64,000 nucleotides of DNA, taken from the sequence record MZ956761.1. One strand, written 5' to 3'. The translations under genes were made by a program, and so were the position numbers. Shown one piece after another: positions 15,566 to 24,489 of the stretch. The stretch comes from a phage. Position 1 is the stretch's first letter. Every line of letters begins with the position of its first letter. The notes below the pieces were generated by a model. It made no database searches. It saw only the letters and a program-made list of their open reading frames with translations, and had not been told where the DNA came from.

Positions 15566-15898
15566 ATGAAAACGATTAATCTGAACGCTGCAGTTAAAAC
15601 TAAATGCTTCAATGGTAAATATGATGAAACTATGTGGTTCTTAATGGCAGTTGAAGGTGATATTATTGAAGTAGAAACAACAGAAGGTATGGGAACAGAT
15701 TTCACCTTTACAATTCAAGTTCATAATTTCTTTACTGGTTGGATTTATGAATTGAATACAGTAATCGTTGGAAAAATTGAACAAAATGAATTAGGTGAAT
15801 GGCATTATGTTACAGCTCGCCAACGCGCAGAACGCTTAATTGAGAAGATGAAAAAAGTTGGTAAACTTGACATGCAGCACTGGAAAGTAGTAAAATAA
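15566..15898 (+). CDS. 30.8: Hypothetical protein (110 aa)
   Basis: ATG with AAGGAGA RBS; symbol by synteny. Confidence 0.6.
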   Translation: MKTINLNAAVKTKCFNGKYDETMWFLMAVEGDIIEVETTEGMGTDFTFTIQVHNFFTGWIYELNTVIVGKIEQNELGEWHYVTARQRAERLIEKMKKVGKLDMQHWKVVK

Positions 15899-15965: not shown

Positions 15966-16331
15966 ATGAACTACATCAACTTTGAACGTAAATATGTTTC
16001 TAATGGTATTGCAGGTTCTATTGATACTATTTGCCTCTGGAAACATCAAAACGGATCAGTATGCGAAATTGAACAGTATATGACTCCTAACTACGTTTAT
16101 ATGCGATTTGAAAATGGCATCACGGTTTCAATCACAATGGAAGGTTCCAACTTCAAAATCGCTCTGGATGATGATTTTCGTCAACGTGATTTAGGGACTC
16201 ATCCTTGCTGGAATGGCGTTAATCGCAAGCTTCTGGTTAAAACTTGGATTCGTCATATTCTGAGTAACAGAGCTAAACCTGAGCATCTTGAAGCGATCTT
16301 TGATGTAGTTCTTAATGAATTTGATATTTAA
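15966..16331 (+). CDS. 30.7: Hypothetical protein (121 aa)
   Basis: ATG at 15966 with GGAGAATAAA RBS (track ORF starts at an upstream TTG); symbol by synteny. Confidence 0.6.
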   Translation: MNYINFERKYVSNGIAGSIDTICLWKHQNGSVCEIEQYMTPNYVYMRFENGITVSITMEGSNFKIALDDDFRQRDLGTHPCWNGVNRKLLVKTWIRHILSNRAKPEHLEAIFDVVLNEFDI

Positions 16332-16342
16332 AATAAAATGAG

Positions 16343-16356
16343 GGGCTTCGGCCCCT
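16343..16356 (+). terminator. GC hairpin without clear U-tract (attenuator or processing/stability element)
   Basis: GGGGC-TTCG-GCCCC between 30.7 and 30.6, followed by TTACTGAGGAAAA. Confidence 0.35.
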
Positions 16357-16372
16357 TACTGAGGAAAATATA

Positions 16373-16660
16373 ATGTTTATGACTACTTATTTTGATACTC
16401 GTAAAAACTTCTGCGAAGTGGTTTTCTCTAAGGCGCCTAAAGACCTTCCTGCTCATTTGCAACCTACCAGCGAATCGATTAAAAACTACGTTAATGTAGT
16501 ATGTCCTTTAGAGTTCCGTACTGTAAATGGGCGCGATACTTTAGCTATCACTAAACTTAATCGTGAAATTGACATTGACCCTTCAATTGCGCGTGAAATT
16601 AATATTTCTGATATTGGCGGTGGTAATGTTAAATCACACGGCTTTCAGATGAGGTTCTAA
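16373..16660 (+). CDS. 30.6: Hypothetical protein (95 aa)
   Basis: ATG with GAGGAAAA RBS; symbol by synteny. Confidence 0.55.
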   Translation: MFMTTYFDTRKNFCEVVFSKAPKDLPAHLQPTSESIKNYVNVVCPLEFRTVNGRDTLAITKLNREIDIDPSIAREINISDIGGGNVKSHGFQMRF

Positions 16661-16857
16661 TGAAATTCTTTTTAGGTCAAACTGTTGAATTAAAGGGAGT
16701 TGGTATACCTGGATTAATTTCTAAGGTTCTACCTCCATTTAAATGGAGTGGTATTCAAATAAAAGAGGCTTATATTGTTTCCTGGGTAGATGGAAATGAA
16801 GACCTTCGTATGGGTGATGAATTATCTCCTATTTACGGATTAAAGGAATTAGTATGA
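16660..16857 (+). CDS. 30.5: Hypothetical protein (65 aa)
   Basis: ATG ORF with overlapping junctions; symbol by synteny. Confidence 0.5.
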   Translation: MKFFLGQTVELKGVGIPGLISKVLPPFKWSGIQIKEAYIVSWVDGNEDLRMGDELSPIYGLKELV

Positions 16858-17060
16858 ATATAATTAATAAGATTTTTGGAATTCAGTACATTAAGGTCAC
16901 ATATAAAGTAACAGATAAAAATCCGTATACTGATGAACACGAAGAACCGAAAGTTGAGTCTATTATATTAGAAAAGGACCCTAACTGGCCAGTTGAATTT
17001 CGTCTTCCTTGCTATGGTCATTGGGCTGATGTTGAAATTATAAGCATTGAAAATGTCTGA
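16854..17060 (+). CDS. 30.4: Hypothetical protein (68 aa)
   Basis: ATG ORF; symbol by synteny. Confidence 0.5.
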   Translation: MNIINKIFGIQYIKVTYKVTDKNPYTDEHEEPKVESIILEKDPNWPVEFRLPCYGHWADVEIISIENV

Positions 17061-17511
17061 GATAGAGATTAGAAGTAATTTTAGATGGCCATCATGCGCA
17101 TTAAGTAATTTCGCCCATTGGCCTTTCGTTATGGATGGTATTCAATTTGGAGGTCTCGAAGGATTCCTCCAAGGGTGCAAGGTGAAAAATGTTGAACAAC
17201 AACGTCGTATATTTGGGTTATCCGGGCTTGCCGCCCAACAAGCTGGAAGGTCTTATGCAAGAGCTCAGGACCGCGGGACCCTCTTCTGGCTTGGAGTTCC
17301 GTTTTCAAGATACTCCCCGGCGTGGAAAGAATTATACACAAATGCATATTTTGAAGCAGCGATCCAAAACAAGGGCTTTCGTGATGCATTACAAGCCTCA
17401 AAAGGAAAAGTTTTGAAGCACAGCATGGCTAGTGGTCTAACAAAAGATGATACAATACTAACCGAAGCTGAATTTATTGATGTGTTAAACCTATTAAGAG
17501 ACTCTCTATGA
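17053..17511 (+). CDS. 30.3: NADAR-domain protein (YbiA-like; candidate ADP-ribose N-glycosidase)
   Basis: About 152 aa from ATG 17053; LSNFAHWPFVMDGIQF..EGFLQGCK pattern resembles the NADAR/DUF1768 family (recalled). Confidence 0.65.
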   Translation: MSEIEIRSNFRWPSCALSNFAHWPFVMDGIQFGGLEGFLQGCKVKNVEQQRRIFGLSGLAAQQAGRSYARAQDRGTLFWLGVPFSRYSPAWKELYTNAYFEAAIQNKGFRDALQASKGKVLKHSMASGLTKDDTILTEAEFIDVLNLLRDSL

Positions 17512-18368
17512 AGCCTACTATTTTGACTGATATTGATGGTGTATGTTTAAGCTGGCAATCAGGTCTTCCTTATTTTGCTCAGAAATATAATCTTCCGTTA
17601 GAACATATTTTAAAAATGATCCAAGATGAGAAATTTATTTCTCCTGGTAAACTCTTTAATTGTGATGAAGAACTTGGCGTCAAGTTAATTGAAAAATACA
17701 ATCGTTCAGATTTTATTCGTTACTTGTCTCCATATAAAGATGCCCTGTGTGTAATTAACAAGTTAAAAGAAGATTATAATTTTGTTGCTGTTACAGCATT
17801 GGGTGATTCTATTGACGCTCTGCTGAATCGTCAATTTAATTTGAATGCTCTTTTTCCTGGTGCCTTCTCAGAAGTATTGATGTGTGGTCATGATTCTTCA
17901 AAAGAAGAGTTGTTCAAAAAGGCAAAAGAGAAATATAACGTAATTTGTTATATCGACGATCTCGCTCACCACTGCGATCATGCGAGTGAAATATTAAGTG
18001 TTCCTGTTTATTGGATGGCTCGAGGGGAGCGTGACAATATTCCAAAAACTGCACAGCGAGTTTATACATGGAATGATGTCGAGAATAAGCTTTTTCCATC
18101 GAAGGAAAATAAAGAAAGTTTTGATAGTGAAAAAGCTATAAAAGATGTAATTGAAAAGATGATTAAAAACGATTCTTTTCGTTGGAACACTACTTGGAGA
18201 ACTCCTGGATTTAATCCTTATAATCCATATCATCCATATTATACACACTCATATCAGAATCCATTCCATCCATTCCATACATGGAGTTATATTAAGCCTG
18301 GCGATGCAGGGTATTTTAATAGACTTACTAGTGGTAGTGGTGATAATATTTTCCAAGGAGCATTCTAA
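17508..18368 (+). CDS. 30.2: HAD-superfamily 5'(3')-deoxyribonucleotidase-like protein with low-complexity C-terminal tail
   Basis: 286 aa; N-terminal ILTDIDGV (DxDG HAD motif I); C-terminal P/Y/H/N-rich tail GFNPYNPYHPYYTHSYQNPFHPFHTWSY. Confidence 0.6.
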   Translation: MKPTILTDIDGVCLSWQSGLPYFAQKYNLPLEHILKMIQDEKFISPGKLFNCDEELGVKLIEKYNRSDFIRYLSPYKDALCVINKLKEDYNFVAVTALGDSIDALLNRQFNLNALFPGAFSEVLMCGHDSSKEELFKKAKEKYNVICYIDDLAHHCDHASEILSVPVYWMARGERDNIPKTAQRVYTWNDVENKLFPSKENKESFDSEKAIKDVIEKMIKNDSFRWNTTWRTPGFNPYNPYHPYYTHSYQNPFHPFHTWSYIKPGDAGYFNRLTSGSGDNIFQGAF

Positions 18369-18637
18369 TGTTTGTTGTTCACACTATTTATGAAAATGAA
18401 GGTAATACTACTCGTGATTACGGTCACGTAAATCAATTTTTTAGATGCAATCCAGAATTTCGAGCTCAAAAAGACGAACGAATTTTTAAAAAATGTGTAG
18501 AGCAAGGTTTCATTTACGTCAAGCATTGGATGCAAGGAAATAAAGTTAGAACCACGTACCATAGGTCTTTGACTGAGCTTAATGATGAATTGATTTATAA
18601 TAGAGCTGTAAACCAAACTCTAAAGGATGAACAATGA
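18368..18637 (+). CDS. 30.1: Hypothetical protein (89 aa)
   Basis: ATG ORF, ATGA overlaps with neighbours; symbol by synteny. Confidence 0.5.
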   Translation: MFVVHTIYENEGNTTRDYGHVNQFFRCNPEFRAQKDERIFKKCVEQGFIYVKHWMQGNKVRTTYHRSLTELNDELIYNRAVNQTLKDEQ

Positions 18638-20097
18638 TTCTTAAAATTCTGAACGAAATAGCATCTATTGGTTCAACTAAGCAGAAGCAAGCAATTCTTG
18701 AAAAGAATAAAGATAATGAATTGCTTAAACGAGTATATCGTCTGACTTATTCTCGTGGGTTGCAGTATTATATCAAGAAATGGCCTAAATCTGGTATTGC
18801 TACCCAGAGTTTTGGAATGTTGACTCTTACCGATATGCTTGACTTCATTGAATTTACATTAGCTACTCGGAAATTGACCGGAAATGCGGCAATTGAGGAA
18901 TTAGTAGGTTATATTACTGACGGTAAAAAAGATGATGTTGAAGTTTTGCGTCGAGTGATGATGCGAGACCTTGAATGTGGTGCTTCAGTATCTATTGCAA
19001 ACAAAGTTTGGCCAGGTTTAATTCCTGAACAACCTCAAATGCTCGCAAGTTCTTATGATGAAAAAGGCATTAGTAAGAATATCAAATTTCCAGCCTTTGC
19101 ACAATTAAAAGCAGATGGAGCTCGGTGTTTTGCTGAAGTCCGAGGTGATGAATTAGATGATGTTCGTCTTTTATCACGAGCTGGTAATGAATATCTAGGA
19201 TTAGATCTTCTTAAGGAAGAGTTAATCAAAATGACTGCTGAAGCCCGCCAGATTCATCCAGAAGGTGTGTTAATCGATGGCGAATTGGTATACCATGAGC
19301 AAGTTAAAAAGGAACCAGAAGGCCTAGATTTTCTTTTTGATGCTTATCCTGAAATTAGTAAAGCTAAAGAATTCGCCGAAGTAGCGGAATCTCGTACTAC
19401 TTCTAATGGAATCGCTAATAAATCTTTAAAGGGAACTATTTCAGAAAAAGAAGCTCAATGCATGAAGTTTCAGGTCTGGGATTATGTTCCGTTGGTAGAA
19501 ATATACGGTCTTCCAGCATTTCGTTTAAAATATGATGTACGTTTTTCTAAATTAGAACAAATGACATCAGGATATGATAAAGTAATTTTAATTGAAAACC
19601 AAGTAGTAAATAACCTAGATGAAGCTAAGGTAATTTATAAAAAGTATATTGACCAAGGTCTTGAAGGTATTATTCTCAAAAATATCGATGGATTATGGGA
19701 AAATGCTCGTTCAAAAAATCTCTATAAATTTAAAGAAGTAATTGATGTTGATTTAAAAATTGTAGGAATTTATCCTCACCGTAAAGACCCTACTAAAGCA
19801 GGTGGATTTATTCTTGAGTCAGAGTGTGGAAAAATTAAGGTAAATGCTGGTTCAGGCTTAAAAGATAAAGCCGGCGTAAAATCGCATGAACTTGACCGTA
19901 CTCGCATTATGGAAAACCAAAATTATTATATTGGAAAAATTCTAGAGTGCGAATGCAACGGTTGGTTAAAATCTGATGGCCGCACTGATTACGTTAAATT
20001 ATTTCTTCCGATTGCGATTCGTTTGCGTGAAGATAAAACTAAAGCTAATACATTCGAAGATGTATTTGGTGATTTTCATGAGGTAACTGGTTTATGA
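18634..20097 (+). CDS. 30: ATP-dependent DNA ligase
   Basis: 487 aa; adenylation motif KADGAR (FAQLKADGARCFAEV); length as T4 ligase. Confidence 0.95.
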   Translation: MILKILNEIASIGSTKQKQAILEKNKDNELLKRVYRLTYSRGLQYYIKKWPKSGIATQSFGMLTLTDMLDFIEFTLATRKLTGNAAIEELVGYITDGKKDDVEVLRRVMMRDLECGASVSIANKVWPGLIPEQPQMLASSYDEKGISKNIKFPAFAQLKADGARCFAEVRGDELDDVRLLSRAGNEYLGLDLLKEELIKMTAEARQIHPEGVLIDGELVYHEQVKKEPEGLDFLFDAYPEISKAKEFAEVAESRTTSNGIANKSLKGTISEKEAQCMKFQVWDYVPLVEIYGLPAFRLKYDVRFSKLEQMTSGYDKVILIENQVVNNLDEAKVIYKKYIDQGLEGIILKNIDGLWENARSKNLYKFKEVIDVDLKIVGIYPHRKDPTKAGGFILESECGKIKVNAGSGLKDKAGVKSHELDRTRIMENQNYYIGKILECECNGWLKSDGRTDYVKLFLPIAIRLREDKTKANTFEDVFGDFHEVTGL

Positions 20098-20331: not shown

Positions 20332-22428
20332 ATGATGGAACTCATTACAGAATTATTTGACGAAGATACTACTCTTCCGATTACAAACTTAAACCCAAAG
20401 AAGAAAATACCACAAATTTTTTCAGTTCATGTTGATGATGCAATTGAACAACCAGGCTTTCGTTTATGTACCTATACATCTGGAGGTGATACTAATCGCG
20501 ATTTAAAGATGGGCGATAAAATGATGCATATTGTTCCTTTTACATTAACTGCTAAAGGTTCAATTGCTAAATTAAAAGGTCTCGGTCCAAGCCCAATTAA
20601 CTACATCAATTCAGTTTTTACCGTTGCAATGCAGACGATGCGTCAGTATAAAATTGATGCCTGTATGCTCCGTATTCTTAAGTCTAAAACTGCTGGTCAA
20701 GCTCGACAAATTCAAGTTATTGCTGATAGACTTATCCGTAGTCGTTCAGGTGGCAGATACGTCCTTCTTAAGGAACTCTGGGATTACGATAAAAAGTATG
20801 CATATATTCTTATACATCGCAAAAATGTATCACTAGAAGACATTCCAGGAGTTCCGGAAATTAGTACCGAGCTCTTTACTAAAGTTGAATCGAAGGTCGG
20901 TGATGTTTATATCAATAAAGATACCGGAGCTCAAGTAACTAAAAATGAGGCAATTGCAGCATCTATTGCGCAAGAAAACGATAAACGTTCTGACCAAGCT
21001 GTAATCGTTAAAGTTAAAATTTCCCGTAGAGCAATTGCACAAAGTCAATCATTAGAATCTTCTAGATTTGAAAGTGAATTATTCCAGAAGTATGAATCTA
21101 CCGCAGCTAATTTCAATAAACCTGCTACCGCTCCTTTAATTCCCGAAGCAGAAGAAATGAAACTTGGAATTAATTCAATAGCTTCTAAAACTAAGGCAGC
21201 AAAAATCATTGCCGAAGGAACTGCAGATGAACTTCACTATGATTATAAATTCTTTTCAAAAAGTGAGGTTAATGAAGTTTCTGAAAAGATAAAAGATGTA
21301 ATTCTTAATGCGATTAAAAATGAACCAACTACTTCAATAAAATGTTTAGAGAAATACGCAGCAGCTGTTAATCAACTCTTTGAAGAATATAAAGATAATT
21401 GGCTTGATAAACATAATAAAACTCGTAAAGGGCAGCCAGATGAAGTCTGGGAAGAAATGACTAAAAATTCCTGGAACGCAGCAAAAACTAAATTCCTCAA
21501 AAGAATGATTTATAGTTTTTCTGGAATTGGTGCAGGTCCAATGATTGATATTACTATTGCCCGTGATGGTTCTAAATATACTCCATCACAAAAGCGCGGC
21601 ATTAGAGAGTATTGTGGTTCAGGATATACAGACATTAATAATCTTCTTTTAGGTCGTTACAATCCAGAACGGTATGAAATAATGAGTGAAAAAGAAATTG
21701 AATCTGCTATAAATAATTTAGATTCAGCTTTTGAAAATGGCGACCGTATACCGGAAGGCATTACAGTTTATCGTGCTCAAAGTATGACTGCTCCTATATA
21801 CGAAGCACTAGTTAAAAATAAAGTGTTCTATTTCAGAAATTTTGTATCTACTTCTTTAACTCCTATCATTTTTGGACGTTTTGGAATTACACATGCTGGT
21901 ATTGGTCTTTTAGAACCAGAAGCTCGTAACGAATTAACAGTTGATAAAAATGAAGAAGGAATAACTATTAATCCAAACGAAATAAGAGCGTATAAAGAAA
22001 ATCCTGAATACGTTAAAGTTCAAATAGGATGGGCAATTGATGGAGCTCATAAAGTTAATGTTGTATATCCAGGAAGTCTCGGAATAGCAACAGAAGCTGA
22101 AGTTATTCTACCGCGCGGATTGATGGTCAAAGTTAATAAAATAACTGATGCTTCTAATAATGACGGAACAACATCTAATAATACAAAACTCATTCAAGCT
22201 GAAGTTATGACCACAGAAGAACTCACCGAATCGGTAATCTATGACGGAGACCGTTTAATGGAAACCGGCGAAGTAGTTGCAATGACTGGTGATATTGAAA
22301 TAGAAGATAGAGTTGACTTTGCATCATTTGTTTCATCAAATGTTAAACAGAAAGTAGAATCATCTCTTGGAATTATTGCGTCTTGCATAGATATTACAAA
22401 CATGCCTTACAAGTTCGTTCAAGGATAA
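20332..22428 (+). CDS. alt: Alt-family NAD-protein ADP-ribosyltransferase (packaged internal head protein), paralog 1
   Basis: 698 aa; N-terminus MELITELFDE...; C-terminal domain carries R (VYRAQ), STS (FVSTSL) and E-x-E (TEAEVILPRG) motifs. Confidence 0.85.
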   Translation: MMELITELFDEDTTLPITNLNPKKKIPQIFSVHVDDAIEQPGFRLCTYTSGGDTNRDLKMGDKMMHIVPFTLTAKGSIAKLKGLGPSPINYINSVFTVAMQTMRQYKIDACMLRILKSKTAGQARQIQVIADRLIRSRSGGRYVLLKELWDYDKKYAYILIHRKNVSLEDIPGVPEISTELFTKVESKVGDVYINKDTGAQVTKNEAIAASIAQENDKRSDQAVIVKVKISRRAIAQSQSLESSRFESELFQKYESTAANFNKPATAPLIPEAEEMKLGINSIASKTKAAKIIAEGTADELHYDYKFFSKSEVNEVSEKIKDVILNAIKNEPTTSIKCLEKYAAAVNQLFEEYKDNWLDKHNKTRKGQPDEVWEEMTKNSWNAAKTKFLKRMIYSFSGIGAGPMIDITIARDGSKYTPSQKRGIREYCGSGYTDINNLLLGRYNPERYEIMSEKEIESAINNLDSAFENGDRIPEGITVYRAQSMTAPIYEALVKNKVFYFRNFVSTSLTPIIFGRFGITHAGIGLLEPEARNELTVDKNEEGITINPNEIRAYKENPEYVKVQIGWAIDGAHKVNVVYPGSLGIATEAEVILPRGLMVKVNKITDASNNDGTTSNNTKLIQAEVMTTEELTESVIYDGDRLMETGEVVAMTGDIEIEDRVDFASFVSSNVKQKVESSLGIIASCIDITNMPYKFVQG

Positions 22429-22431
22429 ATC

Positions 22432-24489
22432 ATGGAACTTATTACAGAATTATTTGACGGCGCTTCGGCGCCGGTTGTTAACTTAAATCCTAAGCATAAA
22501 ATACCTCAAATTTTTGCTATTCAAGCCGGTGAAGAAAGTGTTCTCCCTGGATTTAGATTTTGTACATACACCTCTGGTGGTGATACAAATAAAAACGTTA
22601 AGCCAGGCGATAAAATGATGCATATCGTAATGATAGGTGTCAATGAGAAACTATCATTAGTTAAGCTTAAAAACTTGGGTGGAAATCCAATTGGTGTCAT
22701 TAATGCCGTTTTTGATACTGCTCTTCAAACAATGAAACAGTATAAAATCGACGCATGCCTATTCCGCGTACTAAAAAGTAAAACAAATGGCGCAGCTCGT
22801 CAAATGCAAGTTATTGCTGACCGTTTAGTACGTACTAAGGGAGCAGGTCGATATGTTCTTTTAAAGGAAATCTGGGACTATGATAAAAAATATGCATATA
22901 TTATGGTTTACCGTAAAAATGCCAATTTAGAAGACATTCCAGGTGTACCTCCTATTTCAACTGAGTTATTCACAAAAGTTGAATCAAAGGTTGGTGATGT
23001 TTATGTAGATGTTAAAACAGGTAATGCTGTTCCTAAAGCTGTTGCTGTTGCTGCTTCTATTGCTTTAGAAAATGATAAGCGCACGGATCAAGCTGTTATT
23101 CAGAAAACTAAAATTAGTCGTCGATTAGCAGCACAAGCTCAATATTCTACTGTTGATGCTTCACTTCAGGGTGATAGCTTCGCCGCTAAGAAATATCAAG
23201 AGTTTGAATCTAAAGTTCCGGTATATAAAGCAGAAGGACCAATGAACTCTGGCGTTATTCAGATTGGTTCCAACTTCGGCAAAGGAGCTATCGGTGGTAT
23301 GAGAAGTGCTTCTCGTTTTAAATCTAACGATTATGAACTAGAAAGCTTTCGAAATCATATTGCATTGGCCCATGCACGTTTACGTGATCCGTCTATCAGA
23401 CTGCAGAGCGATATAACACATCAAGGTTCTCAAGAATATTTAAAGAATAAAGAATTTTTTGATTATAAAACCGATAAAATTTTGAGCGATCTCGCTGACA
23501 TTAATATTTCTAATAGCTTTGATGTTATTAAGAAAATTATCAATGATTTAGTTAAAGGTTCTAAAGCCACGCCAGACGAAAAGGTAGCTATTATTCAATT
23601 TGTCATGAATAGCATTTATAAATTGATTAATGAATCTGCTGCCCAGGCATATGAATACGCAAGCACCGAAGTAACTCCAAAAGGACTGACTCAGGCTGAA
23701 TCTGATGTAATTGAAGATTATTGTGCAGATTCATATGTTGAAATGAACTCGTTCCTTTTGGGTAAACCAGATTCTACCCGTGAAGAATACATGGAACGAG
23801 CTATTAAACACATCGAGACGTTGGATTCTGCATTCGCCAAAGGATCAGTTCTTCCTCCAGGAACTACGCTTTATCGTGGACAAGAAGTTACTTTTAAAAC
23901 TTTACGCCATAATATTGAAAATAAAATGTTCTATTTCAAGAACTTCGTATCAACATCGCTTAAACCAAATATCTTCGGTGAGCATGGTAAAAACTATATG
24001 GCTCTAGATGATTCTGGCGCAGTATTTTCTGGCGAAGGAGAAGGTTCTGTTGATGCAGAAGATTTGATGCATATGGGTAGTCATTCTACATATGCCAATG
24101 AAGATGCTGAAACTAGCGTAGGTATGGTAATTAAAGGGGCTGAGCGAATCAAAGTTATCGTTCCAGGTCATTTATCAGGATTTCCATCAGAAGCTGAAGT
24201 TATTCTACCACGTGGAATTTTGTTGAAGATTAATAAAGTAAGCACGTACATGATGAAAGAAACTGCTTATAACAAGTATCTAATCGAAGGTACAATCGTT
24301 CCTCCTTCTGAACAATTAGAAGAATCAGTATATGATGGAGACCATCTAATGGAAACTGGTGAAGTTCGTCCAATGGCTGGATTTAATCAATTCCTTGTAG
24401 AAGAATCAAAAGAAGAGGAAAACGAAGTTTCTCAAATCTTGGCTTCTTTGGTTAACATCAACGGAATGTCTAAAAAGTTCAAGATGTAG
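22432..24489 (+). CDS. Alt-family ADP-ribosyltransferase, paralog 2
   Basis: 685 aa; N-terminal about 230 aa closely similar to paralog 1, divergent middle region, R (LYRGQ), STS (FVSTSL) and E-x-E (SEAEVILPRG) motifs retained. Confidence 0.85.
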   Translation: MELITELFDGASAPVVNLNPKHKIPQIFAIQAGEESVLPGFRFCTYTSGGDTNKNVKPGDKMMHIVMIGVNEKLSLVKLKNLGGNPIGVINAVFDTALQTMKQYKIDACLFRVLKSKTNGAARQMQVIADRLVRTKGAGRYVLLKEIWDYDKKYAYIMVYRKNANLEDIPGVPPISTELFTKVESKVGDVYVDVKTGNAVPKAVAVAASIALENDKRTDQAVIQKTKISRRLAAQAQYSTVDASLQGDSFAAKKYQEFESKVPVYKAEGPMNSGVIQIGSNFGKGAIGGMRSASRFKSNDYELESFRNHIALAHARLRDPSIRLQSDITHQGSQEYLKNKEFFDYKTDKILSDLADINISNSFDVIKKIINDLVKGSKATPDEKVAIIQFVMNSIYKLINESAAQAYEYASTEVTPKGLTQAESDVIEDYCADSYVEMNSFLLGKPDSTREEYMERAIKHIETLDSAFAKGSVLPPGTTLYRGQEVTFKTLRHNIENKMFYFKNFVSTSLKPNIFGEHGKNYMALDDSGAVFSGEGEGSVDAEDLMHMGSHSTYANEDAETSVGMVIKGAERIKVIVPGHLSGFPSEAEVILPRGILLKINKVSTYMMKETAYNKYLIEGTIVPPSEQLEESVYDGDHLMETGEVRPMAGFNQFLVEESKEEENEVSQILASLVNINGMSKKFKM

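Follow-up and report, generated by a model that had tools for sequence, protein, structure and literature searches.

Gene 30.3 of a Tequatrovirus is an intact T4-type allele of adfN and very probably encodes a NADAR-fold ADP-ribosylglycohydrolase that counters DarTG1

The window analyzed here is a 64,000-nt stretch of phage DNA (sequence record MZ956761.1). Its bases 16000–19000 were 100% identical to Escherichia phage ADUt (OQ466432.1, Tequatrovirus) and 90–97% identical to hundreds of T4-like phages; the phage of the present window is a Tequatrovirus. The genes of the region follow the order known from T4: 30.7, 30.6, 30.5, 30.4, 30.3, 30.2, 30.1, DNA ligase (gene 30), alt.1, and alt. An open reading frame on the plus strand at 17053..17511, found exactly where the earlier note had placed it, starts with ATG at 17053 and has a stop codon ending at 17511. 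It encodes a protein of 152 aa with a single NADAR domain. Since the gene order matches T4, this frame is gene 30.3, and its assignment by the earlier note to the 30.x cluster holds (T4 synteny 30.4–30.3–30.2–30.1–DNA ligase). Its neighbors are 30.4, without a Pfam match, and 30.2, with a HAD fold, followed by 30.1 and the DNA ligase. The product was identical to T4 gp30.3 at 149 of 152 aa (98%) and of equal length. The frame is thus the ADUt/T4-type allele of adfN, the name given to gene 30.3 after the DarTG1 resistance of T-even phages had been mapped to it (Johannesman et al., Nat Commun 2025).

The mechanical list of open reading frames started the gene at TTG at 17047, two codons 5′ of the ATG; the ATG at 17053 was preferred because the T4 and ADUt records both annotate it. 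The start of adfN and the stop of the gene before it share 8 nt (ATGTCTGA), and the stop of adfN overlaps the start of gene 30.2 by 4 nt (ATGA). On the plus strand at 16373..20097, all junctions from 30.6 through gene 30 overlap by 1–8 nt; therefore, adfN is probably part of a tightly packed 30.x run that is translated as one coupled unit. A promoter and terminator scan of 14.5–20.5 kb gave counts equal to those of shuffled sequence. The best sigma-70-like site, at 15867..15896 on the plus strand (TTGACA, 18 nt, TAAAAT; 11/12), is located immediately upstream of 30.7 (15966..16331) and could be an early promoter for the 30.7–30 run, though the scan did no better than on shuffled sequence. An Rfam search of 14–21 kb on both strands detected no RNA family.

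A Pfam scan of gp30.3 returned PF08010 (Phage_30_3) with 233.6 bits against a gathering cut-off of 36 (E=7.4e-70; full model 1–138 covered), and tblastn detected gene 30.3 in 1511 phage records. This profile match and these records show the gene to be real. The ADUt record annotates its product as “hypothetical protein”, the same label was found in nearly all of 30 rows sampled from the 1511 records, and in PHROGs gp30.3 belongs to phrog_652, “unknown function”. A search of NCBIfam with gp30.3 gave no match. Two minus-strand frames within adfN (17129..17401 and 17265..17426) were rejected as purely mechanical. A further frame inside adfN, in the +1 register at 17189..17416 (+), corresponds to T4 gene 30.3′; it would encode 75 aa and matches PF11097/DUF2883 (E=3e-51). 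The 30.3′ frame is open in T4, in the present window, and in Gaprivervirus PSD2001; Yersinia phage MHG19 has it closed. Some database entries given as “proteins” join the 30.3 and 30.3′ frames through a frameshift.

The earlier note had assigned the product to the NADAR/YbiA (DUF1768) family by an LSNF...PF..DG signature. The signature is present exactly: residues 17–29, encoded at 17101..17139 (+), read LSNFAHWPFVMDG (LSNF-AHW-PF-VM-DG). In a set of 72 full-length homologues with 34–93% identity, L17, S18, N19, F20, and F25 were invariant, and D28 and G29 were at least 90% conserved; for this reason, the signature cannot be regarded as a chance match. The profile-based part of the assignment stood only indirectly. 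The direct Pfam scan of gp30.3 matched PF08010 alone, with PF08719 (NADAR) absent even at E≤10, and a single-sequence phmmer search against all PDB sequences gave matches at the level of chance (E 0.29 and 0.61). Through the homologues, the family was reached: 29 of the 72 matched PF08719 at E≤1 (best E=1.5e-7), several carried the JGI label COG3236/YbiA, and a profile of all 72 had E. coli YbiA as its sole match among all PDB sequences (E=0.011). In the HMM alignment, LSNF...DG falls on “FSNFAAWPIKVDG” and EGFLQ..K on EHYFQAQK of YbiA. The phmmer search with one homologue (P0084) against the PDB likewise returned YbiA at E=0.04, the rest being noise. The T4-type family has its own Pfam entry, PF08010.

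The predicted structure of gp30.3 matched characterized NADARs. The best match was the Phytophthora nicotianae NADAR with ADP-ribose (8bau, 12.1), followed by E. coli YbiA (2b3w, 11.5) and the DarT1-linked NADAR of Geobacter lovleyi (8bat, 9.5). In the model, the NADAR domain begins at about residue 3 of 152, and residues 138–151 (17464..17505, +) form a C-terminal alpha-helix that is intact and identical to that of T4. A NADAR fold had been predicted for the family years earlier (de Souza and Aravind, as cited in Schuller et al., 2023; Iyer et al., 2022). The link of gp30.3 to the NADAR superfamily (PF08719/DUF1768/COG3236) is indirect, drawn transitively from homologue profiles and from the comparison of a predicted model. 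The earlier note had proposed to treat the lack of a significant NADAR profile hit as a refutation. Taken literally, the direct Pfam scan triggers that condition, but the verdict would have been misleading, because the relationship is seen only along these two routes.

The motif E-x-[FY]-x-Q-x-x-K is present in gp30.3 as E36-G-F-L-Q-G-C-K43. The catalytic glutamate E36 (codon 17158..17160, +) was found in 72/72 homologues and aligns to the Glu of YbiA “SEHYFQAQKF”; the lysine K43 (codon 17179..17181, +), which binds the phosphate of ADP-ribose, is K in 70/72 and aligns to the Lys of YbiA “QAQKF”. The equivalents of these residues, E88/K95 in the E. coli C7 NADAR and E43/K50 in PnNADAR, contact ADP-ribose, and K95 is essential in the former (Schuller et al., 2023). 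In AdfN-T4, E36A and K43A both impaired DarTG1 counter-defense, and E36A abolished activity in vitro (Johannesman et al., 2025). The third active-site position is probably H123 (codon 17419..17421, +), which is H in 72/72 homologues. This equivalence is suggested by the local motif (LKH vs. LVE) and by the end of the YbiA alignment of homologue P0084, which stops one residue before the position of H123. In phage NADARs, His replaces a conserved Glu (Asp in DarT1-linked NADARs), and His at the third catalytic position is a hallmark of the T4-type phage clade, with Glu in YbiA-like proteins (Schuller et al., 2023; Johannesman et al., 2025).

The histidine also bears on the substrate. YbiA, which ranked second in the structure comparison, acts as an N-glycosidase on riboflavin intermediates, and phage NADARs were proposed to act mainly on soluble ADP-ribose derivatives (Iyer et al., 2022). 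Along these lines, AdfN would degrade soluble ADP-ribose-derived molecules (immune second messengers) or intermediates of the riboflavin pathway and not DNA adducts. We consider this highly improbable: the Glu that defines YbiA is His in gp30.3, the T4 clade is nearest to DarT1-linked NADARs and not to YbiA, and removal of ADP-ribose from DNA was seen in direct assays. For the T4-type clade, those DNA assays have overtaken the soluble-substrate proposal of Iyer et al. (2022). AdfN could nevertheless have a side activity on small molecules.

The present allele differs from T4 by three substitutions, L4I, Q22H, and I125M. I4, H22, and M125 sit at positions that vary freely among the 72 homologues. 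Residues 126–152 are identical to T4, and all conserved residues are intact. The intact C-terminal helix matters because in the RB69 allele a frameshift removes the last 15 residues and RB69 is sensitive to DarTG1; the same truncation in the T4 protein lowers its activity, and RB69 is rescued by ectopic adfN (Johannesman et al., 2025). Truncated or frame-shifted alleles thus occur in nature, and database clusters of 86–126 aa with 80–98% identity, some of them fused to 30.3′ (P0004–P0007, P0013, P0015–P0017, P0049), would fit the same pattern. The allele of the present window might by that precedent be non-functional or weakened like that of RB69, so that the gene is there but the phage is unprotected. 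The frame, however, is full length and T4-identical over residues 126–152, its three substitutions spare every conserved residue, and the T2 allele is functional with the same 98% identity to T4 (Johannesman et al., 2025). There is little chance that this allele is defective; with substitutions only at naturally variable positions, it would be expected, by analogy, to behave like the T4 protein. Gene identity, synteny, fold, residue conservation, and the intact C-terminus were all established in the present analysis.

Many truncated gp30.3 entries of 83–126 aa and 80–98% identity (P0004–P0007, P0013–P0018, P0021, P0049) were encountered in phage genomes and metagenomes, with phages SV76, NR1, UGJNEcP4, and RPN226 as examples. 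Some of them may be RB69-like inactivated adfN alleles, and others may be sequencing or gene-calling artifacts. Such truncated alleles could serve to predict sensitivity to DarTG1.

The function of gene 30.3 is already known, its activity having been demonstrated in 2024 and its biological role in 2025. NADARs hydrolyze the guanine-N2-ADP-ribose made by DarT1 (Schuller et al., 2023). In vitro, T4 gp30.3 removed ADP-ribose from guanine and not from thymine, and in uninfected cells it did not rescue DarT1 toxicity (Cihlova et al., Toxins 2024). [quoted passage not shown] The purified protein strips ADP-ribose from DarT1-modified DNA, whereas E36A does not; a two-hybrid assay showed no interaction between AdfN and DarT1, and DarTG2 is not countered (Johannesman et al., 2025). 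In a transposon screen, insertions in 30.3/adfN were lost specifically on DarTG1 hosts (HIDEN-SEQ preprint, 2025), and the gene is non-essential on K-12 (HIDEN-SEQ, 2025; Johannesman et al., 2025). This work, done on a 98%-identical protein, supports the proposal of the earlier note that the product removes ADP-ribose from guanine and counters host DarTG-like defense. Enzymatic activity, specificity, and counter-defense phenotype would carry over to the present allele by analogy with T4.

Taken together, we are highly confident that the frame is an allele of adfN and encodes a stand-alone NADAR-fold ADP-ribosylglycohydrolase countering DarTG1. The host toxin DarT1 would modify guanines of the phage DNA with ADP-ribose at their exocyclic amino group and thereby block replication. 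AdfN would hydrolyze the guanine–ADP-ribose bond, using E36, K43 (for phosphate binding), and probably H123, and the restored, unmodified DNA would allow the phage to replicate on DarTG1 hosts. The enzyme would neither bind the toxin nor act on thymine-ADP-ribose, the product of DarT2.

The phage also encodes ADP-ribosyltransferases, as the earlier note had stated. Two tandem Alt-like genes with PF03496 domains lie on the plus strand in the same early region, at 20332..22428 (698 aa) and 22432..24489 (685 aa). Located directly after ligase and alt.1, the two appear to be paralogues; in T4, the stretch inspected (from 124 kb) has a single alt gene beside alt.1. NADARs of T4-like phages sit among early genes and are co-expressed with ADP-ribosyltransferases (Iyer et al., 2022). 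With these two genes 2.8 kb downstream of adfN, and ModA/ModB elsewhere, AdfN might mainly edit the marks of the phage's own transferases (arginine-ADP-ribosylation or RNAylation of host proteins), its anti-DarT action being secondary; the published work reports no assays on protein-ADP-ribose, including arginine-ADP-ribose. The characterized NADARs, however, act on the N-glycosidic bond to guanine, and even thymine-ADP-ribose is not cleaved by them. The phenotype of the T4 deletion on DarTG1 is clean and complementable, with 30.3 dispensable on K-12, and neither genetics nor biochemistry has been reported to connect the protein with Alt or Mod. This explanation is very unlikely, and the suggestion of the earlier note that the protein edits the phage's own marks, or protein ADP-ribosylation at all, found no support, the published activity being on guanine in DNA.

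The anti-DarTG1 hydrolase interpretation is itself incomplete in one respect. AdfN-T4 is fully active only in T-even infection and gives no more than weak rescue of non-T-even phages, for which its authors infer a further T-even factor (Johannesman et al., 2025). Because of this weak rescue and the failure to rescue uninfected cells, the picture of a free-standing hydrolase does not account for everything. We considered the adjacent gene 30.2 (17508..18368, +), annotated as “hypothetical”, as a candidate partner. A Pfam scan of gp30.2 gave no match. In its model, residues 1–200 are confident and residues 228–286 are disordered, the C-terminal tail of about 60 aa being rich in Pro, Tyr, and Asn. 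Foldseek with this model returned the HAD superfamily, with the cytosolic 5′(3′)-deoxyribonucleotidase 2jao on top (E=2e-8), and a profile search reached the same entry at E=0.03. D8, D10, K132, D150, and D151 (DxDGV, K, and DD motifs) were invariant in 52 homologues. The model predicts gp30.2 to be a hydrolase with a HAD fold, most similar to 5′(3′)-deoxyribonucleotidases, in which the DxD...K...DD active site is intact.

Of three distant Straboviridae loci that were compared, those of a Gaprivervirus and of Acinetobacter phage KARL-1 retain the order adfN–30.2–ligase; in the Yersinia phage MHG19 locus, 30.3 is followed by two small ORFs, and no 30.2 homologue was identified there. Gene 30.2 was found in 1452 phage records, vs. 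1511 for 30.3, with the same spectrum of genera. This co-distribution does not discriminate for a functional link, because 30.2 and 30.3 each resemble near-core genes of the Straboviridae. Gene 30.2 is not mentioned in the HIDEN-SEQ text. That gp30.2 is the T-even factor required by AdfN-T4 for full activity in cells is, in our estimate, a speculative and improbable proposition. If true, AdfN and gp30.2 would be a two-enzyme module, in which ADP-ribose is taken off DNA and the product is then disposed of, or in which the enzyme is recruited to DNA. In a weaker variant of this proposition, AdfN would also reverse the ADP-ribosylation of guanine by further host toxins yet to be discovered.

The data have several practical consequences. 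Entries now labeled “hypothetical protein” could be re-annotated as adfN, an anti-DarTG1 NADAR. A plain Pfam NADAR scan misses the T4-type clade, so screens for anti-defense genes need PF08010 or structure comparison. The intact allele predicts that the present Tequatrovirus, which is of the type used in therapy, is insensitive to DarTG1 hosts.

Among known NADAR systems, the closest is AdfN-T4 (T4 gp30.3, NP_049816; PF08010), which has the same length, the same E36/K43/H123 and C-terminal helix, and 98% identity to the present protein. Its flanks are alike, with 30.4 upstream and 30.2 downstream, both overlapping, and the three differences between the alleles (see above) are conservative or fall at variable sites. 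DarG1 (E. coli C7; Geobacter lovleyi, 8bat) is paired with DarT1, whereas gp30.3 is an orphan with no DarT domain in its neighbors. DarG1 has an N-terminal extension and 219 aa, against 152 aa without the extension in gp30.3, and a catalytic Asp (D171 in E. coli C7) where gp30.3 has His. DarG1 is also not replaceable by the T4-type protein in uninfected cells. Membership of gp30.3 among DarG1 antitoxins was rejected because gp30.3 lacks both a toxin gene beside it and the extension and has His in place of Asp.

YbiA-like and eukaryotic NADARs (2b3w, 8bau) have a conserved Glu (E125 in PnNADAR) where the gp30.3 family has His, and YbiA serves riboflavin metabolism as a housekeeping enzyme, lies in a LexA-controlled operon, and gives no protection from DarT1 in cells. 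The His was found in all 72 homologues, and a YbiA-type housekeeping role for gp30.3 was rejected. AdfN-Bas32 and AdfN-Bas60 (T5-like, Vequintavirinae) resemble the T4-type protein in being phage-encoded, guanine-adduct-specific NADARs that counter DarTG1, but their NADAR clades are different ones, and their acquisition was independent. Both are active in uninfected cells and protect unrelated phages, whereas the T4-type protein depends on the T-even context.
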